A stretch of DNA of 64,000 bases from an uncultured Gemmatimonadaceae bacterium (GTDB lineage Bacteria > Gemmatimonadota > Gemmatimonadetes > Gemmatimonadales > Gemmatimonadaceae), in assembly GCA_963790305.1 (NCBI GenBank), contig CAWBOC010000009.1:32001-96000 (forward strand), in the 5' to 3' direction. The first letter of the stretch is position 1. Every line of letters starts with the position of its first letter. Shown one piece after another: positions 9,001 to 30,000 of the stretch. A program made the position numbers.

Positions 9001-12000
9001 AGCGCGGCACCCCACCACAGTGCCGCGCGCCGCCGCGACCGCGTTTCCGAATTGGGCATAGGCGTTTAGTGTACCCGGGCTCACAAATGGTGTCAAGAAA
9101 ACCCGAGGTGCTCGAGGCACGTCGAGGTGCGTCGAGGTGCTCAAGGTGCGGCTGCGGTTCTGGGCGCGAGGCTTGCCCTCGATCACCTCGAGCACCTGGA
9201 GCACCTTGGTCTCCAAGCAACGCCGCCAACGCACTCTCCCGCGCCGCACGCTCCGCGGCGGCATCGGCGGCCCGCATCGCCTCCAGGCGCCGACGGTCAC
9301 GGCGCCGCCGCGCCACGTAGAGGGGCACCACGACGAGCATCAGCAGCGCCGCCGCCAGCGAGAGATCGGCCGCGATCGCGAGGGCGCCGTACTGCCGGCG
9401 GGTCCGCTGTCGCCATCGCTCCTCGAACTGCGCCTGGGTCACGCCGAAGGCGCGACGGATCGAGACCTCCAGCGATCGCGTTTCGCGCCAGTACTGGAAG
9501 AAGAGCGTGAGCCCGCGCTCCGGATCCAGCGCGGCGAGCTCCGCGACCGCCCGATGCGCGAGCGCGTACGCGGCGTCGGCGCGCGAGGCGCCGCCGGCGA
9601 ACGTCGCATCGAGCGAATCGAGCGTCGGCATTCCGCGCACGAGCAGGGCGACGCTCGTCGCGAGCACCTCTTCTCGACCCCATTCCCCTGCCGCGACGCT
9701 GGCGTAGCCCTCGTGGAACCATCGCGGCGGGAGGTCGCCTAACGCCTCGTCGAGCGCGAGGTGCGCCAGCTCGTGCCGCAGGACGACCACGCGGGGATCG
9801 CCGGCATCGGAGCCGGCGGTGCGGCCCTGCATGATGATCGTGCGCTGCGCGGGAAACGCGATCGCGGCGCCCCACTCCGGGGCCGCGGGACCGATCCATT
9901 CACGAAATCGCCGCTCGTCGGGTGCCACCGCGATGACGACGCGGGCGCGCGGCCGCGGCAGCCAGGGGAAGCTGTCCCGCTCGGCCGCGGCGGTGAGCAG
10001 CGAGCGCATGAGCTGGTTGTCACTCGGATACCCGATGATCGTGAAACGATCCCGGACGAGGCGATGTGGCGCGCTCGGTTGTGCGAAGAGAGATGATGCG
10101 AGAACGACCGCCGCGATCAGGCCGTGGCGCGCGACCGCGAGAGCGAGCCTCCACCCTCGACGTGCTTCAGCATCTCTCCGCAGCGCTTTCCCCATGGATT
10201 GAACTTGTTCGTGCGATGTCCGTCGCGCCACGCATCCATGGCCGCGTCCTTCTGCTCATCGAACCAGAGCGCGCGGCCGAGCTCGAAGTACGCCTCGACG
10301 AGATTCGGGCCGATTTGCAGCGTCTTCTTGAAGAAGGTCTGCGCATCCTCGTACATCTCGCGCTCGAGATACACGAGACCGAGGTAGAAGTGCGCGTACA
10401 GCGTCGCCTTCCGGTCGTTGTCGAGACGGATGGCCTTCGACAGATGCTCGATCGCCTCACCGAAGATGCGCTTCTTGAGGCAAATGTAGCCGACGTTGAT
10501 GCGCGCGAGCGCGTTGGCCGGCTCGCGCATCAGCACCTTCTGGAAGTTCAAGAGCGCGTCGTCGTACTTCTCCTGGAGCATCTGCGCCCATCCCAACAGG
10601 GACTCCGACTGCGGATCGTCGGGCGCGAGCTGCAGCGCACGCGTCAGTGCCTTCTCGGCGCCGTCGTACTCCCCGAGGGAGATGAGGCTCCATCCCTTCT
10701 CGATGAACGTCGAAGCGCCGAGGTGGTCCGCCATGGGCTTCGGACGCTCCGGAGCGAACTGTGGGGCGGCGCCGGGCGAGGTCGACGTCGCGCTCACCGG
10801 GGCCGCCGCCGCCTGCGAGGACTTCCACTTCTCGACGAGCCGCTTTACGTCGTCCTTGAGCGTCGAGAGCTCCGCGATCTGCGCTTCGACCTGCTTGAAG
10901 AGCGAGACAATGTCGCCCTTGAGCGCTTCGCGCTCAGCGGGCGTCGACGCCGCGTCGAGGCGCGCGTTGATGCGCCGCATAACGGGACCGCAAATCGCCA
11001 GCCCCGCCGTCAGGCATTGTGGGTCGCTCCATCCGCCGCACGCTCGAGCACGAGGCGCTCGTCGGTCGTCAGCAGCCTCGTCACCTCGAGGAAGACGATG
11101 AGGCGATCATTGCGACGCACCACACCGCGCAGGAACTCGGCGGAGAGGCCGCGAAAGAGCGGCGGTGGTGGCGCCAACTCGTCCGACGTCGGGCTGGCGA
11201 CCTCGAGGACGGCGTCCACGATGGCGCCGATCCAGTCGTTCCCCACCGAGAAGACGAGAATGCGCGACTCCGGCCGTGGCTCGATGCTCTCGAGGCCAAA
11301 GCGCAGACGCAGATCGATCACCGGGATGATCCGGCCTCGATACTCGATGACTCCGTCCACCCATTCCGGCACGTTGGGAATGGGCGTCGGCGGCTGGTAG
11401 CGGAGCACGCGCTCCACCGAATAGATGTCGGCGGCGAACAAGTCATCGCCAAGCCGGAAGGTAACGAGCTGCTGTGCGACCGCGGTCATACCGCCTCCGT
11501 GAGCTGATCCGCCAAACACGCCAGCGCCAGCGACTCGGCGTCGATGAGCGCGAGAAGATCGGCCCCGCGACGGATGACCCCGAGAAGCACGTTGTCATCG
11601 TTGTCGGGGATCGGTGCCCGTCGAACCGCCGCGCCATCGATCGTGAGCACATCCTCGACGTCGTCGACCGCGAGGCCCAGCCGCTTCTCGCGCGATCGCA
11701 GAACGAGCACCGCCGCGGCATCGCGTCCAAGCGCAACGCGCAGCACGCGCTCGGGGGAGTAGATCGGAACGAGCCGCTCCCGGAGCTCGAACACACCCAG
11801 CAGGTGGTCGGGCATCTCCGGCAGATGATGGACCGAGGGCAGCTCGATGGCCTCCTCGACCGCCCCGAGATCGACGGCGAACCGCTCATCTCCGACCCGA
11901 AACACCAGCGTGTCGGACAGCCCTTCCCGCGCTGCGATGGCCTCCCGCAGTGGACGTCGGGTCGGCCCCGATGGCTCTTGATCTTCGAACCGGCGCAGGC

Positions 12001-27000: not shown

Positions 27001-30000
27001 GCTTCGAGAACTCTGCTCGGTTGGAAGGGCTTGACGACAAAGTCCTTCGCGCCTGCCTGAATCGCTTCGACCACGAGCGCCTGCTGCCCCATGGCGCTGC
27101 ACATGAGGACCTTCGCGTTCGGGTCGAGCTTCGTGATCTCACGCACCGCATCGATCCCGCCCATGTCCGGCATCACGATGTCCATCGTTACGAGATCGGG
27201 TCGCAGCTGCTTGTACTTCTCGACGGCCTGGACGCCCGTCTCAGCCTCCCCGACGATCTCGAAGCCGGACTGCTGCAGGATGTCGCCGATCATCGTGCGC
27301 ATGAAGATGGCGTCATCGCAGATCAGCACCGTGTGACTCACCGTTCCCTCCGCTAGAGCAGGACGTGCTTGATGATGGAGTGGATGTCGAGGATAATGAC
27401 GACTTTGTCGTCCATTCGTCCCAAGCCGACGATCGATGCATCTTCGCCATCGCGCTCCGTCGCGTGCTCGATCGATTCGGCGGGAAGCATCATGACGTCG
27501 TTCACTTCCGCGACGGCGATTCCGACGAGCTTTTGACGGTGCTCCACGAGGATCACGGAGCCATCCGACGCGAGCGAGCTGTTCCCGTCCAGGCGTGAGC
27601 CGAGGTCGAGAACGGTGACGATCGTCCCGCGAACGTTGATCAGCCCGGCGACGTAGGCGGGCGCGCCGGGGACGCGCGTGGCGCGTCGCACGGGGAGGAT
27701 CTCGCGCACCGCGTCGAGATCGATCCCGTAGAGCCGGTCGCCGAGGCGGAACAGCACCAGGCGGCGAACGGGGACATCAAAGGTTGGTGCGGTAGAAGCC
27801 AAAGTGGTCGAGCGGGTCGGGGGACTCCAGCGGCTCGCCAGCCACCGCGTCGAGCGCCTTGCGGAGGTCAGCGGGAAGCGGAGACCGCAACTCGACCGTC
27901 TCGCCCGTTTCCGGGTGAGGGAAGATCAACCACGCAGCGTGCAGGAAATGACGCTTCGGCGGGAGTGCAACCAACCGCCGACCGCCTCCTCCGCCGTACG
28001 TGTCATCCCCCAGCACGGGATGCCCGATCGACGCGAGATGCACGCGAATCTGATGGGTGCGCCCCGTGTGCAGGTGCGCCCGCAGCAGATCCGCCGAGTC
28101 GAATCGGGCCAGCCGGACGAAATCGGTCTTTGCGGCCTTCCCCGTATTGACGACCGCCATCCGCTTTCGGTCTCGCGGATCGCGGGCGACCGGTTTCTCG
28201 ACAGTCACACGGTCGGAGGTGAGATGCCCCCATGAAACCGCGGCGTAGCGGCGCTTGATGCGGCGGCCCGCCAGCGCCGCCCCGAGCCACCGATGGGCCC
28301 GATCGGTCTTGGCCACGAGCAGCAGCCCTGACGTCTCCTTGTCGAGCCGGTGGAGGATCCCCTCGCGCCCGGTGCCTCCCTCCGCGGCCAGCGACTGCCC
28401 ACGTCCCTTCAACGCGTTGACGAGGGTCCCCGTCCAGTTGCCCGGAGCTGGATGCACGACCATTCCAGCCGGCTTGTCGACGACGAGCGCGTGCTCGTCC
28501 TCCCACACCACGGTGAGTGGAATGTCCTCGGCGAGGACGGGACGATCGGGAGGTGGAGGGATGTCGACCGCGATGCGTTCCCCGGTCGCCGGCCGGTACG
28601 AGGCTTTCTCGCGGCGCCCGTCCACCGTCACGTTCCCGTTGGCGATGAGCGTCGCGGCGCCGGTGCGCGAGAGATCGAGTCGTGAGGCAACGAGCAAGTC
28701 GAGCCGCAGGCCCGGCGCGTCCTCGATGACGAACTGGTGTAGCCCCGGAGTGGGCGCGCTAGTCATGCATCCGATCGCCTAAGGTGCAGCGACGCCCGCT
28801 GTCTTCAGGCGCGTTCTACGGAGCTTGCGACACTCGAGGCCGCGGCGCGGGCGCGCGCGCGATCTTCCGCCCACAGGGACCAGGCCAGCATGAAGGCTCC
28901 GATGCTGACCGCCATGTCGGCCACGTTGAACGTCGGCCAGCGCTGCATGCCGACACCGATGTCGATGAAGTCGACGACGCCCATGGGATGCCGAATCCGG
29001 TCGATCACGTTGCCGATCGCGCCGGCGCACACGAGCCCGATCGACGCGATGCGGAACCGGTCGGGGTCAGGCGTCTGCCGATAGAGCCGCCCGAGAATGA
29101 CCAGCGCAACGATCGCGAGGGCGAGAAAGAGCCAGCGTGAGTACGGACCTAACGATATACCGAACGCGGCGCCGGTGTTGTACACGAGCGTGAGACGGAG
29201 CCAGTCCCCGATGACTTCCCGCGGAATCCCGCGCGGCGCCAGCGAGGCTTCGGCCCAGGCCTTCGTCACCACATCGAGCACGATGATGGTCACGATGAGC
29301 CCCCAGAAGAGAACTCGCCGGCTGCGCGCGCTCATCGGGAAGCGCCCTGGGACTCGGTGACGACCGGCACGGCCGCGACCGAATGCTTCCGGTCTTCCTG
29401 CCAGAGAATCCAGGCGAGAAGCACCGCGCCGAAAGTGATCGCGACGTCGGCCACGTTGAACGTATAGAACCGCGCGCTACCGATGCCGAGGTCGATGAAA
29501 TCCACGACGCCGCGCGAGGAGCGTACGCGATCCAGCATGTTGCCGAGCGCGCCCGCCGAGACGAGCGCCAGCGCCGCGGCGCGCGCGCGATCCCGCAGGT
29601 CGGTCGCGCGGTAGAGCTGACCGAGGATGACCAGGGCGACCGCGGCGAGCGCGATGAAGATCACCCGCGAGTACGGCCCGACCCCGATGCCGAACGACGC
29701 CCCGGGGTTGTACGCGAGCGTCAGCTGCACCCAATCGCCCACCACCTCGTGCGGAACGTATTCCGGGACGAGGTGCGTGACGGCGAGCGATTTGGTGGCG
29801 ACATCGAGCGCGAGAACGACCAGGAGCAGTGGCCAGAACAGCGTGGCCTTAGGACTGCTTCTTCCCATCTTCCTCGCGCTGCTTGTCCTTGATGCACAGC
29901 CGCGCGTGGGGCAGCGCGTCGAGTCGGTCGAAGTCGATGTCTTCGCCGCACTGCTGGCACTTGCCGAATGTCTCGGGCGAGCGGTACAGGCGGCGCAGCG

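Follow-up and report, generated by a model that had tools for sequence, protein, structure and literature searches.

A twin DnaA-type AAA+ protein as a candidate ATP switch on a PATAN-TPR scaffold in a chemosensory/MglA operon of Gemmatimonadales

Given the position of a gene for a twin DnaA-type AAA+ protein inside a chemosensory operon, between mglA and a gene for a PATAN-TPR protein, we questioned what such a protein does there and which of its neighbours it works with. The window (a stretch of 64,000 nucleotides from an uncultured soil bacterium of the Gemmatimonadaceae, contig CAWBOC010000009.1, positions 32,001 to 96,000) holds the twin gene at 16256..18170, on the minus strand like every other feature located here by window position. 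It occupies two reading frames: a 563-aa frame (16256-17947) matched the Pfam domain Bac_DnaA twice, and a second frame (17700-18170) matched the first 78 positions of the same profile. As a preliminary description of the locus had claimed, the gene is frameshifted and has 637 codons in intact relatives; alignment to the same-genus genome G171, whose intact twin protein is 637 aa long, placed one extra T at ~17931. When metagenome contigs were aligned to 17400-18300, the base at 17930 was omitted in both of the two bridging contigs, one of them near-identical (one other letter over 315 nt), which makes an assembly error or a strain-specific change the probable cause of the frameshift. Both frames are open, with 94-100% identity to the intact G171 protein.

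The intact twin protein showed no match to DnaA_N or Bac_DnaA_C at E ≤ 0.01 (Pfam), and the genome's real DnaA, on C5, carries DnaA_N, Bac_DnaA and Bac_DnaA_C. These results bear out the earlier statements that the protein has two copies of DnaA domain III, lacks domains I and IV, and is not a replication initiator, the true dnaA lying on C5. No description of a twin DnaA-type family was found in the literature searched.

Sequence and structural modelling directly support the assignment of module 1 (residues 1-234; 17468..18170) to the AAA+ core and lid of DnaA domain III, and its nucleotide site is intact. It matched PDB 8bv3 by sequence (E 4e-59) and by structure (Foldseek, TM 0.95, rmsd 1.4 Å), and both modules share the AAA+ fold of DnaA domain III (PDB 8bv3/8btg, 2z4r, 1l8q/2hcb/3r8f). 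Walker A (GLGKTH), Walker B (DD), the box VII arginine finger R156 and sensor II R205 are all present in module 1; among 73 cluster representatives they were kept in 69, 70, 52 and 62, respectively. Equivalents of filament-interface residues, whose roles in Bacillus subtilis DnaA are given in section 8 of PMC6669920, were largely kept as well (L269 in 61/73, G317 in 54/73 and R321, as R or K, in 64/73; B. subtilis positions). In contrast to DnaA, the twin protein has neither domain I/II nor the DNA-binding domain IV, and the positions equivalent to the essential single-stranded DNA residues I190 (H16, R11, E7, T6, A6, L5) and K222 (R29, Q14, H10, K7) were not kept. It differs further in its two modules, its helical linker and a predicted C-terminal docking motif, and in its placement in a Che/MglA/PATAN operon of a genome with a normal dnaA elsewhere. 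Module 1 is ~43% identical to domain III of the genome's own DnaA, and both modules cluster apart from the DnaA of the phylum (SH-like support 0.775 for module 1 and 0.995 for module 2).

The linker that joins the lid of module 1 to module 2 had been described as ~190 aa and helical. It proved to be ~140 residues long (235-374; 17048..17467), of which ~30 are disordered and ~90 helical: AlphaFold2 (AF2) models predict disorder at 238-267, a bundle of helices at 268-284, 290-297, 304-328 and 341-358, and a proline-rich end. A fold search with the linker returned nothing informative (best Z 6.2), and it is nearly deleted in genome G180. Module 2, the second DnaA-type AAA+ domain by Pfam (residues 375-600; 16370..17047), has D-Q as its Walker B in this genus. 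Its Walker A was kept in 50/73 cluster representatives and its Walker B in 47/73, and the whole module is deleted in four genomes (G084, G049, G106 and G188); such single-module forms are also placed between mglA and PATAN-TPR. The comparison of sequences thus directly supports the view that module 2 and linker are dispensable in evolution, and the twin architecture is not essential, because Walker A of module 2 was lost in 23/73 representatives and module 2 deleted in four genomes. The arginine fingers were moderately conserved (52/73 and 54/73). We rejected a clean split of labour in which module 2 gives its finger to module 1, as forms with a dead second Walker A kept finger 1 in 21/23 cases and finger 2 in 18/23.

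The operon runs on one strand and counts 18 genes, one more than the 17 first given: CheW, CheY, CheA, CheC, TPR, PATAN-TPR, TPR-Roadblock, Roadblock, Roadblock, MglA, twin, PATAN-TPR, CheR, CheD, CheB, CheW, CheW and TPR, with this content confirmed by Pfam. Upstream of the twin gene lie the chemosensory genes (24318..27802), with CheA split over two frames (24947-26326 and 26136-26843), a 901-aa TPR protein (21609-24314), a first PATAN-TPR gene, identified by Pfam and translation, that also bears a tandem RLG motif (20461-21726), and three Roadblock/LC7 (MglB-like; Pfam Robl_LC7) genes within 18788..20468 (TPR-Roadblock 19629-20468, then 19282-19674 and 18788-19393). CheR, CheD, CheB, CheW (11486-11905), CheW (11010-11519) and TPR (10117-10980) fill 10117..14775 downstream; an ORF at 11443-12168 was rejected as a gene, being a wrong-frame shadow of the CheW at 11486-11905. 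The operon holds no pilus gene and no MCP gene, and seven MCPs are encoded elsewhere in the genome. Besides the PATAN-TPR protein discussed below, four other TPR proteins are encoded in it.

The start codon of the twin gene lies 3 nt past the mglA stop, and its TGA overlaps the ATG of the following PATAN-TPR gene by 1 nt, pointing to translational coupling. In 20 loci chosen for diversity from the homologue hits, PATAN-TPR directly followed the twin gene in all 20, mglA directly preceded it in 18, a Roadblock gene stood before mglA in 17/18, and CheR came next after PATAN-TPR in 15/19, so that the conserved neighbours first reported recur in this sample. Across Gemmatimonadales the twin gene has a fixed place in a chemosensory/MglA/Roadblock/PATAN operon, and a replication context was never found in the loci examined. 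Its constant partner is the PATAN-TPR gene (20/20), not mglA (18/20). In G116 and G159 the two stand as a pair alone, framed by the genes that also flank them in the window and with the only MglA of each genome elsewhere. The pair also occurs without adjacent mglA at a locus whose record is titled Cloacimonetes.

The partner is a 539-aa PATAN (DUF4388)-TPR protein (14637..16256; Pfam). It had been read as carrying two PATAN domains; there is one, split by a helical insertion, and the orthologue in L044 gives a single hit over profile positions 1-122. Within the insertion, residues 57-108 (15933..16088) form a predicted MshE-type tandem c-di-GMP-binding motif, of the kind defined in PMC5013675, matched by NCBIfam NF053729 with 52.7 bits (cut-off 38). 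The same model matched 18/18 PATAN-TPR orthologues, and the motif aligned to the N-termini of MshEN-DnaA fusions with a probability of 97.6% and E 3.7e-12 (hhalign), so that profile matches directly support a c-di-GMP motif in the partner. A PATAN domain and the tandem 24-residue motif recall cyanobacterial PatA-type regulators and MshEN receptors; here, however, PATAN is joined to TPR rather than to a receiver, and the motif sits in the PATAN insertion. Passages of one of the papers that mention both PATAN and MshEN do not draw this connection. PATAN-TPR is present in 144/201 genomes of the phylum, and the scaffold can work without the twin ATPase, since G114 and G074 keep PATAN-TPR without a DnaA-like gene. 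Natural fusions among the long forms join the twin to PATAN-TPR or to a receiver, and, in other lineages, DnaA to MshEN or TPR; no GTPase or Roadblock fusion was seen among them.

How the two proteins might meet is suggested by the C-terminal tail of the twin protein (residues 613-637; 16259..16333), a predicted TPR-docking peptide with E619, K620, W625, P626 and E634. W625 was found in 64/73 cluster representatives and is invariant in alignments A2 and A3; among the single-module forms, G084, G049 and G106 retain the W-bearing tail, while that of G188 has no W. Docking of the tail on TPR had been set down as an idea ahead of the complex prediction, which returned ipSAE values of 0.79, 0.76 and 0.79 for twin plus PATAN-TPR (best control 0.00), against a mark reached by 116/157 solved complexes and 2/215 mismatched pairs. 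This score is the model's own confidence, and part of the pass may reflect likeness, because solved structures include many TPR-peptide complexes. The runs shared at least 63% of contacts, with a pLDDT of at least 72 for the PATAN-TPR protein. The prediction thereby places tail residues 611-636, with high confidence, in the groove formed by TPR residues 284-494 (14775..15407) of the next gene's product, with contacts that include the conserved N322, N427, K461, N462 and D465. TPR contact residues were slightly more conserved than other TPR residues (0.636 vs 0.565, permutation p 0.034), and in the natural fusion P0254 the tail motif runs straight into PATAN-TPR. The TPR domains of co-chaperones hold C-terminal peptides, and an extended C-terminal peptide in a concave TPR groove is likewise predicted here; the tryptophan-centred motif (W625) and the AAA+ ATPase cargo are different.

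The preliminary description had made the twin protein part of an MglA/MglB-type polarity switch. That view holds only in part. Its premises stand: the protein is a non-initiator, its operon is fixed, and the adjacent GTPase (18174..18782) is by sequence a genuine MglA, with E 5e-75 against Myxococcus xanthus MglA (5ymx) and TDRT and YTVPGQ stretches that align identically. The MglA link itself is not the most constant one, nor the one with the best support, given the loci in which the pair persists without adjacent mglA, the predicted contact to TPR, and a second MglA accompanied by its own MglB (C9:~254.6-255.8 kb). As this canonical mglB-mglA pair lies elsewhere in the genome, the operon's MglA is a dedicated paralogue. 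The M. xanthus Frz pathway to MglA/MglB/MglC/RomR likewise combines CheA, CheW, CheY, CheR and CheB with a genuine MglA and Roadblock proteins, with surface motility the likely output of both; it differs from the present single operon with three Roadblock genes, two PATAN-TPR genes with c-di-GMP motifs, CheC, CheD and a DnaA-derived ATPase, and without an MCP of its own. Judged by title and abstract start, none of the listed papers mentioning MglA and DnaA concerns such an ATPase. Flagellin was not found in the genome at 94% completeness and was detected in only 54/201 genomes of the phylum; several T2SSE-family ATPases are encoded. In Synechocystis, PATAN domains bind PilB1 and PilC, according to bioRxiv 10.1101/2021.06.11.447907, and by analogy with this cyanobacterial literature the output is probably the steering of type IV pili.

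Our best reading, held with middling confidence from gene order, conservation and predicted structure, is that the twin protein has no part in replication and serves as an ATP switch, derived from DnaA and anchored on a signalling scaffold. Tethered through TPR, this switch would belong to the output of the chemosensory/MglA pathway. In its ATP state, module 1 would associate head to tail like DnaA, with module 2 or further copies as its partner, and this association would give the PATAN-TPR scaffold, which may also read c-di-GMP, a different valency or conformation. The scaffold's PATAN domain would then act on the type IV pilus motor, with timing and pole set by the Che pathway, the dedicated MglA and the three Roadblock proteins.

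A possible though doubtful alternative is that the twin protein acts directly on MglA as its regulator or effector: it would bind the GTP or the GDP form and serve the polarity switch as exchange factor, co-GAP or nucleotide-dependent effector, with the PATAN-TPR contact secondary. The adjacency of mglA in 18/20 loci, at a distance of 3 nt in the window, and a genuine MglA dedicated to the operon argue for it, as does the presence of single-module forms in the same slot; the persistence of the twin and PATAN-TPR pair without adjacent mglA (G116, G159, Cloacimonetes-titled locus) argues against it, and the fusions seen in long forms bring in PATAN-TPR, receiver, MshEN and TPR rather than GTPase or Roadblock partners. 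It is compatible with the tethered ATP switch. Hda, also a DnaA-type AAA+ protein that lacks a DNA-binding domain, acts by AAA+ contact with DnaA, and the likeness of module 1 to the genome's own DnaA and the several AAA+/AAA+ interface residues that it retains, the arginine finger among them, would suit a regulator that docks on the DnaA AAA+ domain in this way and couples replication initiation to motility or polarity. We consider this unlikely: the Hda model TIGR03420 scored 160.8 against a cut-off of 194.8, Hda structures were matched weakly (E 4e-7), and Hda has one module, whereas the twin protein has two with linker and tail, in another genomic context. The separate clades, the lack of replication context in the loci examined, and a conserved tail and fusions that suggest TPR, PATAN and receiver proteins as partners weigh against it too.

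A role in assembly or remodelling, with the twin protein not as a switch but as an AAA+ chaperone that puts together or takes apart TPR/PATAN/Che complexes or the base of the pilus, would fit the tandem architecture, the distant structural matches to p97 and Rix7, and the many operon TPR proteins as possible clients. It seems improbable, however, given the poor tandem-AAA matches (rmsd 16-22 Å), close relatives that are initiator-clade switch ATPases, and a module 2 that is often dead or absent, ill-fitting for a two-ring unfoldase. That the gene is a pseudogene in this genome, and the finding without bearing on the organism, is very improbable: the extra base does split the frame, as CheA is split, but the bridging contigs lack that base and both frames remain open and closely similar to the G171 protein.

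For the TPR-tethered ATP switch, a slow turnover of ATP would provide a timer or latch next to the GTPase switch of MglA. A replication motor thus seems to have found a second use as a switch in signalling, with the ATP-binding core of DnaA kept without its DNA-binding parts.

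Relative to the intact 637-aa twin ATPase of a same-genus genome (P0003 of G171), the window carries one extra T at about 17931, in agreement with the preliminary description, which had reported a gene whose N-terminus is cut by a frameshift. Within the DnaA-like gene (16256-18170, minus strand), a 563-aa frame (16256-17947) matched Pfam Bac_DnaA twice and was 94% identical to P0003, while a second frame (17700-18170) accounted for the start of the gene, Walker A of module 1 and Bac_DnaA profile positions 2-78. Contigs from four soil-metagenome runs were aligned to positions 17400-18300, and the base was missing at 17930 in both contigs that bridge the frameshift (one of these being 315 nt long with 1 other difference). 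We therefore regarded the natural gene as intact, with residues numbered as in P0003 throughout. The ATG of the twin lies 3 nt after the mglA stop, and its TGA overlaps the ATG of the downstream PATAN-TPR gene by 1 base.

The AlphaFold2 model of the twin (83 aligned family members, pLDDT 90.5, pTM 0.75) comprised a first module (residues 1-234) and a second (about residues 375-600), separated by a linker with a disordered part (238-267) and a bundle of helices (268-358); a further disordered stretch (602-612) and a short tail follow the second module. Module 1 superposed on domain III of Bacillus subtilis DnaA with a TM of 0.95 and an rmsd of 1.4 Å (Foldseek), and tandem AAA+ proteins such as p97 could be superposed on the twin only at an rmsd of 16-22 Å. 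Together the two Bac_DnaA matches in P0003 summed to 368.7 bits. The twin thus has the AAA+ domain III type of DnaA. No match to Bac_DnaA_C (the DNA-binding domain IV, for which the genome's own DnaA scores 83.9 bits) or to DnaA_N (domain I) was found in P0003 at E ≤ 0.01, and the N-terminus begins about 45 residues ahead of Walker A. The true DnaA of the host, on contig 5, carries both of these domains. The earlier assignment of two domain III copies lacking domains I and IV, with dnaA proper elsewhere on that contig, is therefore confirmed by Pfam. The linker was modeled confidently (pLDDT 89.8). A fold search with it (VIA-align) gave generic helical matches only (best Z 6.2), a protein atlas search returned no usable match, and linker alignments contained no conserved stretch.

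Three other identities were weighed for the protein, namely a replication initiator, an Hda and a STAND-type ATPase. The first is the one implied by TIGR00362, the DnaA equivalog model, which the twin passes with 490.9 bits (cut-off 343.9). However, the score comes from two stretches that cover only model positions 104-338 of 437, and the cut-off is exceeded artefactually, because the duplication lets two partial domain III matches add up. These summed matches account for the names "chromosomal replication initiator" and "DnaA/Hda family" given by the sources, and the automatic label "chromosomal replication initiator DnaA" is to be expected for this family, and wrong. For Hda, which has an N-terminal clamp-binding motif, the TIGR03420 score was 160.8 bits (below the cut-off of 194.8), and module 1 matched Hda structures at only E 4e-7, compared with E 4e-59 to 8bv3. 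STAND-type matches were all below threshold, nSTAND6 reaching 27.0 bits (cut-off 27.7).

We assessed which parts of the DnaA-derived twin are kept by evolution. A profile search over 1.84 billion cluster representatives recovered many family clusters; 75 listed representatives of 540-760 aa were aligned with P0003 (76 sequences), of which 3 were dropped, leaving 73 with residues in both modules. Walker A was retained in 69 of the 73 in module 1 and in 50 in module 2, and Walker B in 70 and 47, respectively. Sensor II of module 1 (R205) was retained in 62/73, and the tail tryptophan W625 in 64/73. In the twin itself, module 1 has both Walker motifs, sensor II and the box VII arginine, as expected of an AAA+ switch ATPase with a competent nucleotide site, and module 2 has Walker A, with Walker B reading D-Q in the genus of the window. 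All 23 representatives with a dead Walker A in module 2 retained that of module 1. A division of labor, in which module 2 would supply the arginine finger to ATP bound by module 1, was also considered. The two fingers were not separated by conservation (R156 in 52/73 and R518 in 54/73), and among representatives with a dead second Walker A, finger 1 was kept in 21/23 and finger 2 in 18/23, both of which speak against it.

Residues of B. subtilis DnaA were mapped onto the twin through an ungapped alignment (offset 108), following the roles given in section 8 of PMC6669920 for the ssDNA residues I190 and K222 and for filament-interface residues. Neither ssDNA residue was kept among the 73 representatives: the equivalent of I190 (position 82) was most often H (16), R (11), E (7), T (6), A (6) or L (5), and that of K222 (position 114) was most often R (29), Q (14), H (10) or K (7). 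Several filament-interface positions were kept, with L269 conserved in 61, G317 in 54 and R321, counting K as well as R, in 64 of the 73.

Further information came from eight loci fetched from genomes that appeared to have "DnaA only" in the phylum search, yet possessed the PATAN-TPR protein. Four of these (in G084, G049, G106 and G188) encode, between mglA and the PATAN-TPR gene, a single-module form consisting of module 1, linker and C-terminal tail, the tail tryptophan being lost in that of G188. Another genome (G180) has both modules with the linker almost absent, and one (G144) has a full but divergent twin. These natural deletions indicate that the retained core is module 1 plus the tail, and the second module, from which the finding takes its name, is the least essential part. 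At the remaining two (G114 and G074, loci L063 and L069), the Che operon is trimmed and includes the PATAN-TPR gene but nothing DnaA-like, implying that the PATAN-TPR scaffold is able to exist without the ATPase. At the G074 locus, the MglA and Roadblock genes are missing too.

The scaffold encoded directly downstream is a 539-aa PATAN(DUF4388)-TPR protein (14637-16256, minus) whose first 235 residues are highly conserved. The helical insertion of its PATAN domain aligned with the N-termini of MshEN-DnaA fusion proteins (hhalign probability 97.6%, E 3.7e-12), and the protein scored 52.7 bits (cut-off 38) against NCBIfam NF053729 ("c-di-GMP_motif, MshE-related", 53 positions), a model also matched by 18/18 partner orthologues. 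Pfam MshEN gave no match on the PATAN insertion even at E ≤ 10, so the link comes from hhalign and NF053729. A tandem 24-residue sequence of this kind holds c-di-GMP, as shown by Wang et al. (PMC5013675). Based on sequence, the partner carries a pair of 24-residue RLGxx... motifs separated by a short spacer, making it a putative c-di-GMP receptor of the MshEN type. The host genome has lysine in place of the glycine that most orthologues carry at position 10 of the second motif. The RLG motif also occurs in the first PATAN-TPR protein of the operon.

Docking of the tail, as a peptide, in the TPR of its neighbor had been proposed ahead of complex prediction, for which the whole PATAN-TPR protein and ATPase residues 375-637 were supplied, both as alignments. 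Three runs gave ipSAE values of 0.79, 0.76 and 0.79, compared with 0.00 for the best of three controls, above a mark that is passed by 116/157 solved complexes and 2/215 mismatched pairs; TPR-peptide complexes are common among solved structures, and this likeness may add to the score. The runs shared at least 63% of contacts, with a partner pLDDT of at least 72. On the ATPase side, all confident contacts fell within residues 611-636 (including E619, K620, V622 and W625), and none came from module 2. On the partner side, they lined TPR residues 284-494 (including N322, N427, H458, K461, N462 and D465), and contact residues were slightly better conserved than other TPR residues (0.636 versus 0.565, permutation p 0.034). 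The prediction therefore supports, short of proof, binding of the tail in the partner's TPR.

All genes of interest surrounding this pair are on the minus strand, in a window of 66-70% G+C, and Pfam matches resolved 18 genes in the operon rather than the 17 counted previously. From high to low coordinates, these encode CheW (27353-27802), CheY (26979-27341), CheA in two frames (26136-26843 and 24947-26326), CheC (24318-24938), a 901-aa TPR protein (21609-24314), the first PATAN(DUF4388)-TPR protein (20461-21726), a TPR-Roadblock protein (19629-20468), two Roadblock proteins (19282-19674 and 18788-19393), a small GTPase (MglA, 18174-18782), the twin and its partner, CheR (13816-14775), CheD (13328-13819), CheB (12259-13341), two further CheW proteins (11486-11905 and 11010-11519) and a TPR protein (10117-10980). 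The Che core, MglA and Roadblock GAP are those expected for Frz-like control of MglA polarity. No match to MCPsignal was found in the window, and 7 MCPs are encoded elsewhere in the genome. In CheA (24947-26843), the overlapping frames divide the domains, with Hpt in 26136-26843 and P2, dimerisation, HATPase and CheW domains in 24947-26326, and the frame change is likely a second single-base error within the operon. A 241-aa open reading frame (ORF) without a family match (11443-12168, minus) is a wrong-frame shadow of the 139-aa CheW at 11486-11905 (86.5 bits), whose true start may also be affected by an indel. The operon is flanked by an RluD-like pseudouridine synthase gene (27777-28766) and, after its last gene, by a Peptidase_MA gene (HExxH; 8939-10231, minus). 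Just upstream of the former is a tandem lspA pair (28805-30072, minus), in which adjacent 176-aa and 246-aa ORFs match signal peptidase II (Peptidase_A8).

The twin was detected at full-length level (best E ≤ 1e-55) in 128/201 genomes of the phylum, belonging to six families (f1, f2, f3, f4, f7 and f8), and the PATAN-TPR protein in 144/201 (unpublished genomes G157, G182, G057 and G097 are counted in each tally). Among 20 loci picked for diversity (one from unpublished G097), the PATAN-TPR gene was immediately 3' of the twin in all 20, and mglA immediately 5' in 18. A Roadblock gene was found ahead of mglA in 17/18 cases, and CheR next behind the PATAN-TPR gene in 15/19. The fixed order of Roadblock, mglA, twin, PATAN-TPR and CheR genes noted in the preliminary description was therefore reproduced in this sample. 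In the two genomes lacking an adjacent mglA (G116 and G159), the locus has shrunk to the ATPase and PATAN-TPR pair, and the only MglA is encoded elsewhere. The pair in G116 is flanked by RluD-like and Peptidase_MA genes, as is the operon in the window. The Peptidase_MA gene thus represents a conserved flank, following the whole operon here and the reduced pair in G116 (L044:1247-2323), where a sigma-54 response regulator gene comes next.

The operon GTPase matched Myxococcus xanthus MglA at E 5e-75, with identical TDRT and YTVPGQ stretches, which we take to hold the intrinsic arginine and the switch-region T/Q of MglA group 1. Its sequence marks it as a true MglA. Outside the window, recR-ybaB-dnaX adjoins a further, canonical pair of Roadblock (163 aa) and MglA (225 aa) genes (locus L150, contig C9 of the host genome G000, 251500-258500), implying that the genome has two MglA systems and that the operon MglA is an extra, dedicated copy. 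Outside the phylum label, a scan with a single protein (P0170) recovered a single relative of full length, whose record (44% G+C) bears the title Candidatus Cloacimonetes bacterium 4572_55. In the other 79 loci, the match was confined to a single DnaA-type module, and these were taken for ordinary DnaA. In the Cloacimonetes-titled locus, the genes for CheW, CheC, a TPR protein (826 aa), a PATAN protein (241 aa) and the twin occur in that order, with no mglA in the 5 kb upstream.

Fusions were sought among longer relatives of the family. In a 1026-aa protein (P0254), the tail motif runs directly into a PATAN-TPR protein, although this is a single cluster that could be an assembly artefact, whereas the other fusion classes are recurrent. 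A 738-aa relative (P0185) has a C-terminal receiver (Response_reg) domain where other members have the tail motif, which connects the ATPase with phosphorelay input. In seven proteins (P0194, P0203, P0275-P0278 and P0366; 1141-1990 aa), DnaA-type modules are combined with an N-terminal MshEN bearing the tandem RLG motif, and the middle parts are without annotation. Most of the other 105 long matches have TPR families beside Bac_DnaA (1170-2480 aa) and cover only about 35% of the query, equivalent to one module. These long relatives, mostly TPR with one DnaA-type module (P0279-P0375, P0219, P0220, P0238, P0244 and P0252), have source names including Sumerlaeia, Hydrogenedentota and Fermentibacteria. 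Some proteins of 1084-1420 aa had 7-9 stretches matching the family profile.

Flagellin was not found in the host genome (94.3% complete) and was detected in only 54/201 genomes of the phylum. Its presence showed no clean pattern with that of the operon, which occurs in genomes both with and without flagellin. The host encodes several T2SSE-family ATPases, and in cyanobacteria the PATAN domains of PatA-type regulators have PilB1 and PilC as binding partners (bioRxiv 10.1101/2021.06.11.447907). Given the rarity of flagellin, the T2SSE ATPases and this PATAN binding, we infer that type IV pili are the most likely output target. In a FastTree phylogeny of 108 DnaA-type modules (midpoint rooted, and thus giving no reliable root or donor), second modules of the family formed one clade (support 0.995), first modules another (0.775, with one outsider), and the real DnaA of the phylum a third (0.706). 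The two modules are not sister groups, implying that the tandem is older than the radiation of the family. That MglA/MglB genes are associated with PATAN genes was already reported in 2006 and 2014, and PMC4316618 makes no mention of DnaA. In the literature listings and cited passages covered, no ATPase resembling DnaA was found to be described in connection with MglA, PATAN or chemosensory systems.

The observation at the center of the preliminary description is real, but its interpretation as part of an MglA switch needs to shift toward the scaffold. The twin is most plausibly an ATP switch of DnaA origin that is held through its tail on a PATAN-TPR protein with a c-di-GMP motif, and in most Gemmatimonadales this protein is in turn connected with a Che pathway and with MglA and Roadblock proteins dedicated to it. 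More tentatively, and with rather less than an even chance of being right as a whole, the Gemmatimonadota twin may be one form of a broad class of initiator-derived signaling ATPases not described so far. In such a class, a DnaA-type AAA+ would serve as a nucleotide latch on TPR/PATAN/MshEN scaffolds, either fused to them (source names including Sumerlaeota, Hydrogenedentota and Fermentibacteria) or encoded as a neighbor, as here, and in this operon the latch would merge Che phosphorylation, c-di-GMP and MglA-GTP into one choice of type IV pilus site. The DnaA ATPase core is a textbook case of a switch used for replication only. In the twin, the parts that bind DNA are gone, a putative docking peptide has been added, and the core is now a fixed component of a motility/polarity signaling operon in an abundant soil phylum. 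This would be a clear example of an initiator re-used as a signaling device, and would bring a third nucleotide input (ATP) into polarity control beside GTP (through MglA) and c-di-GMP.
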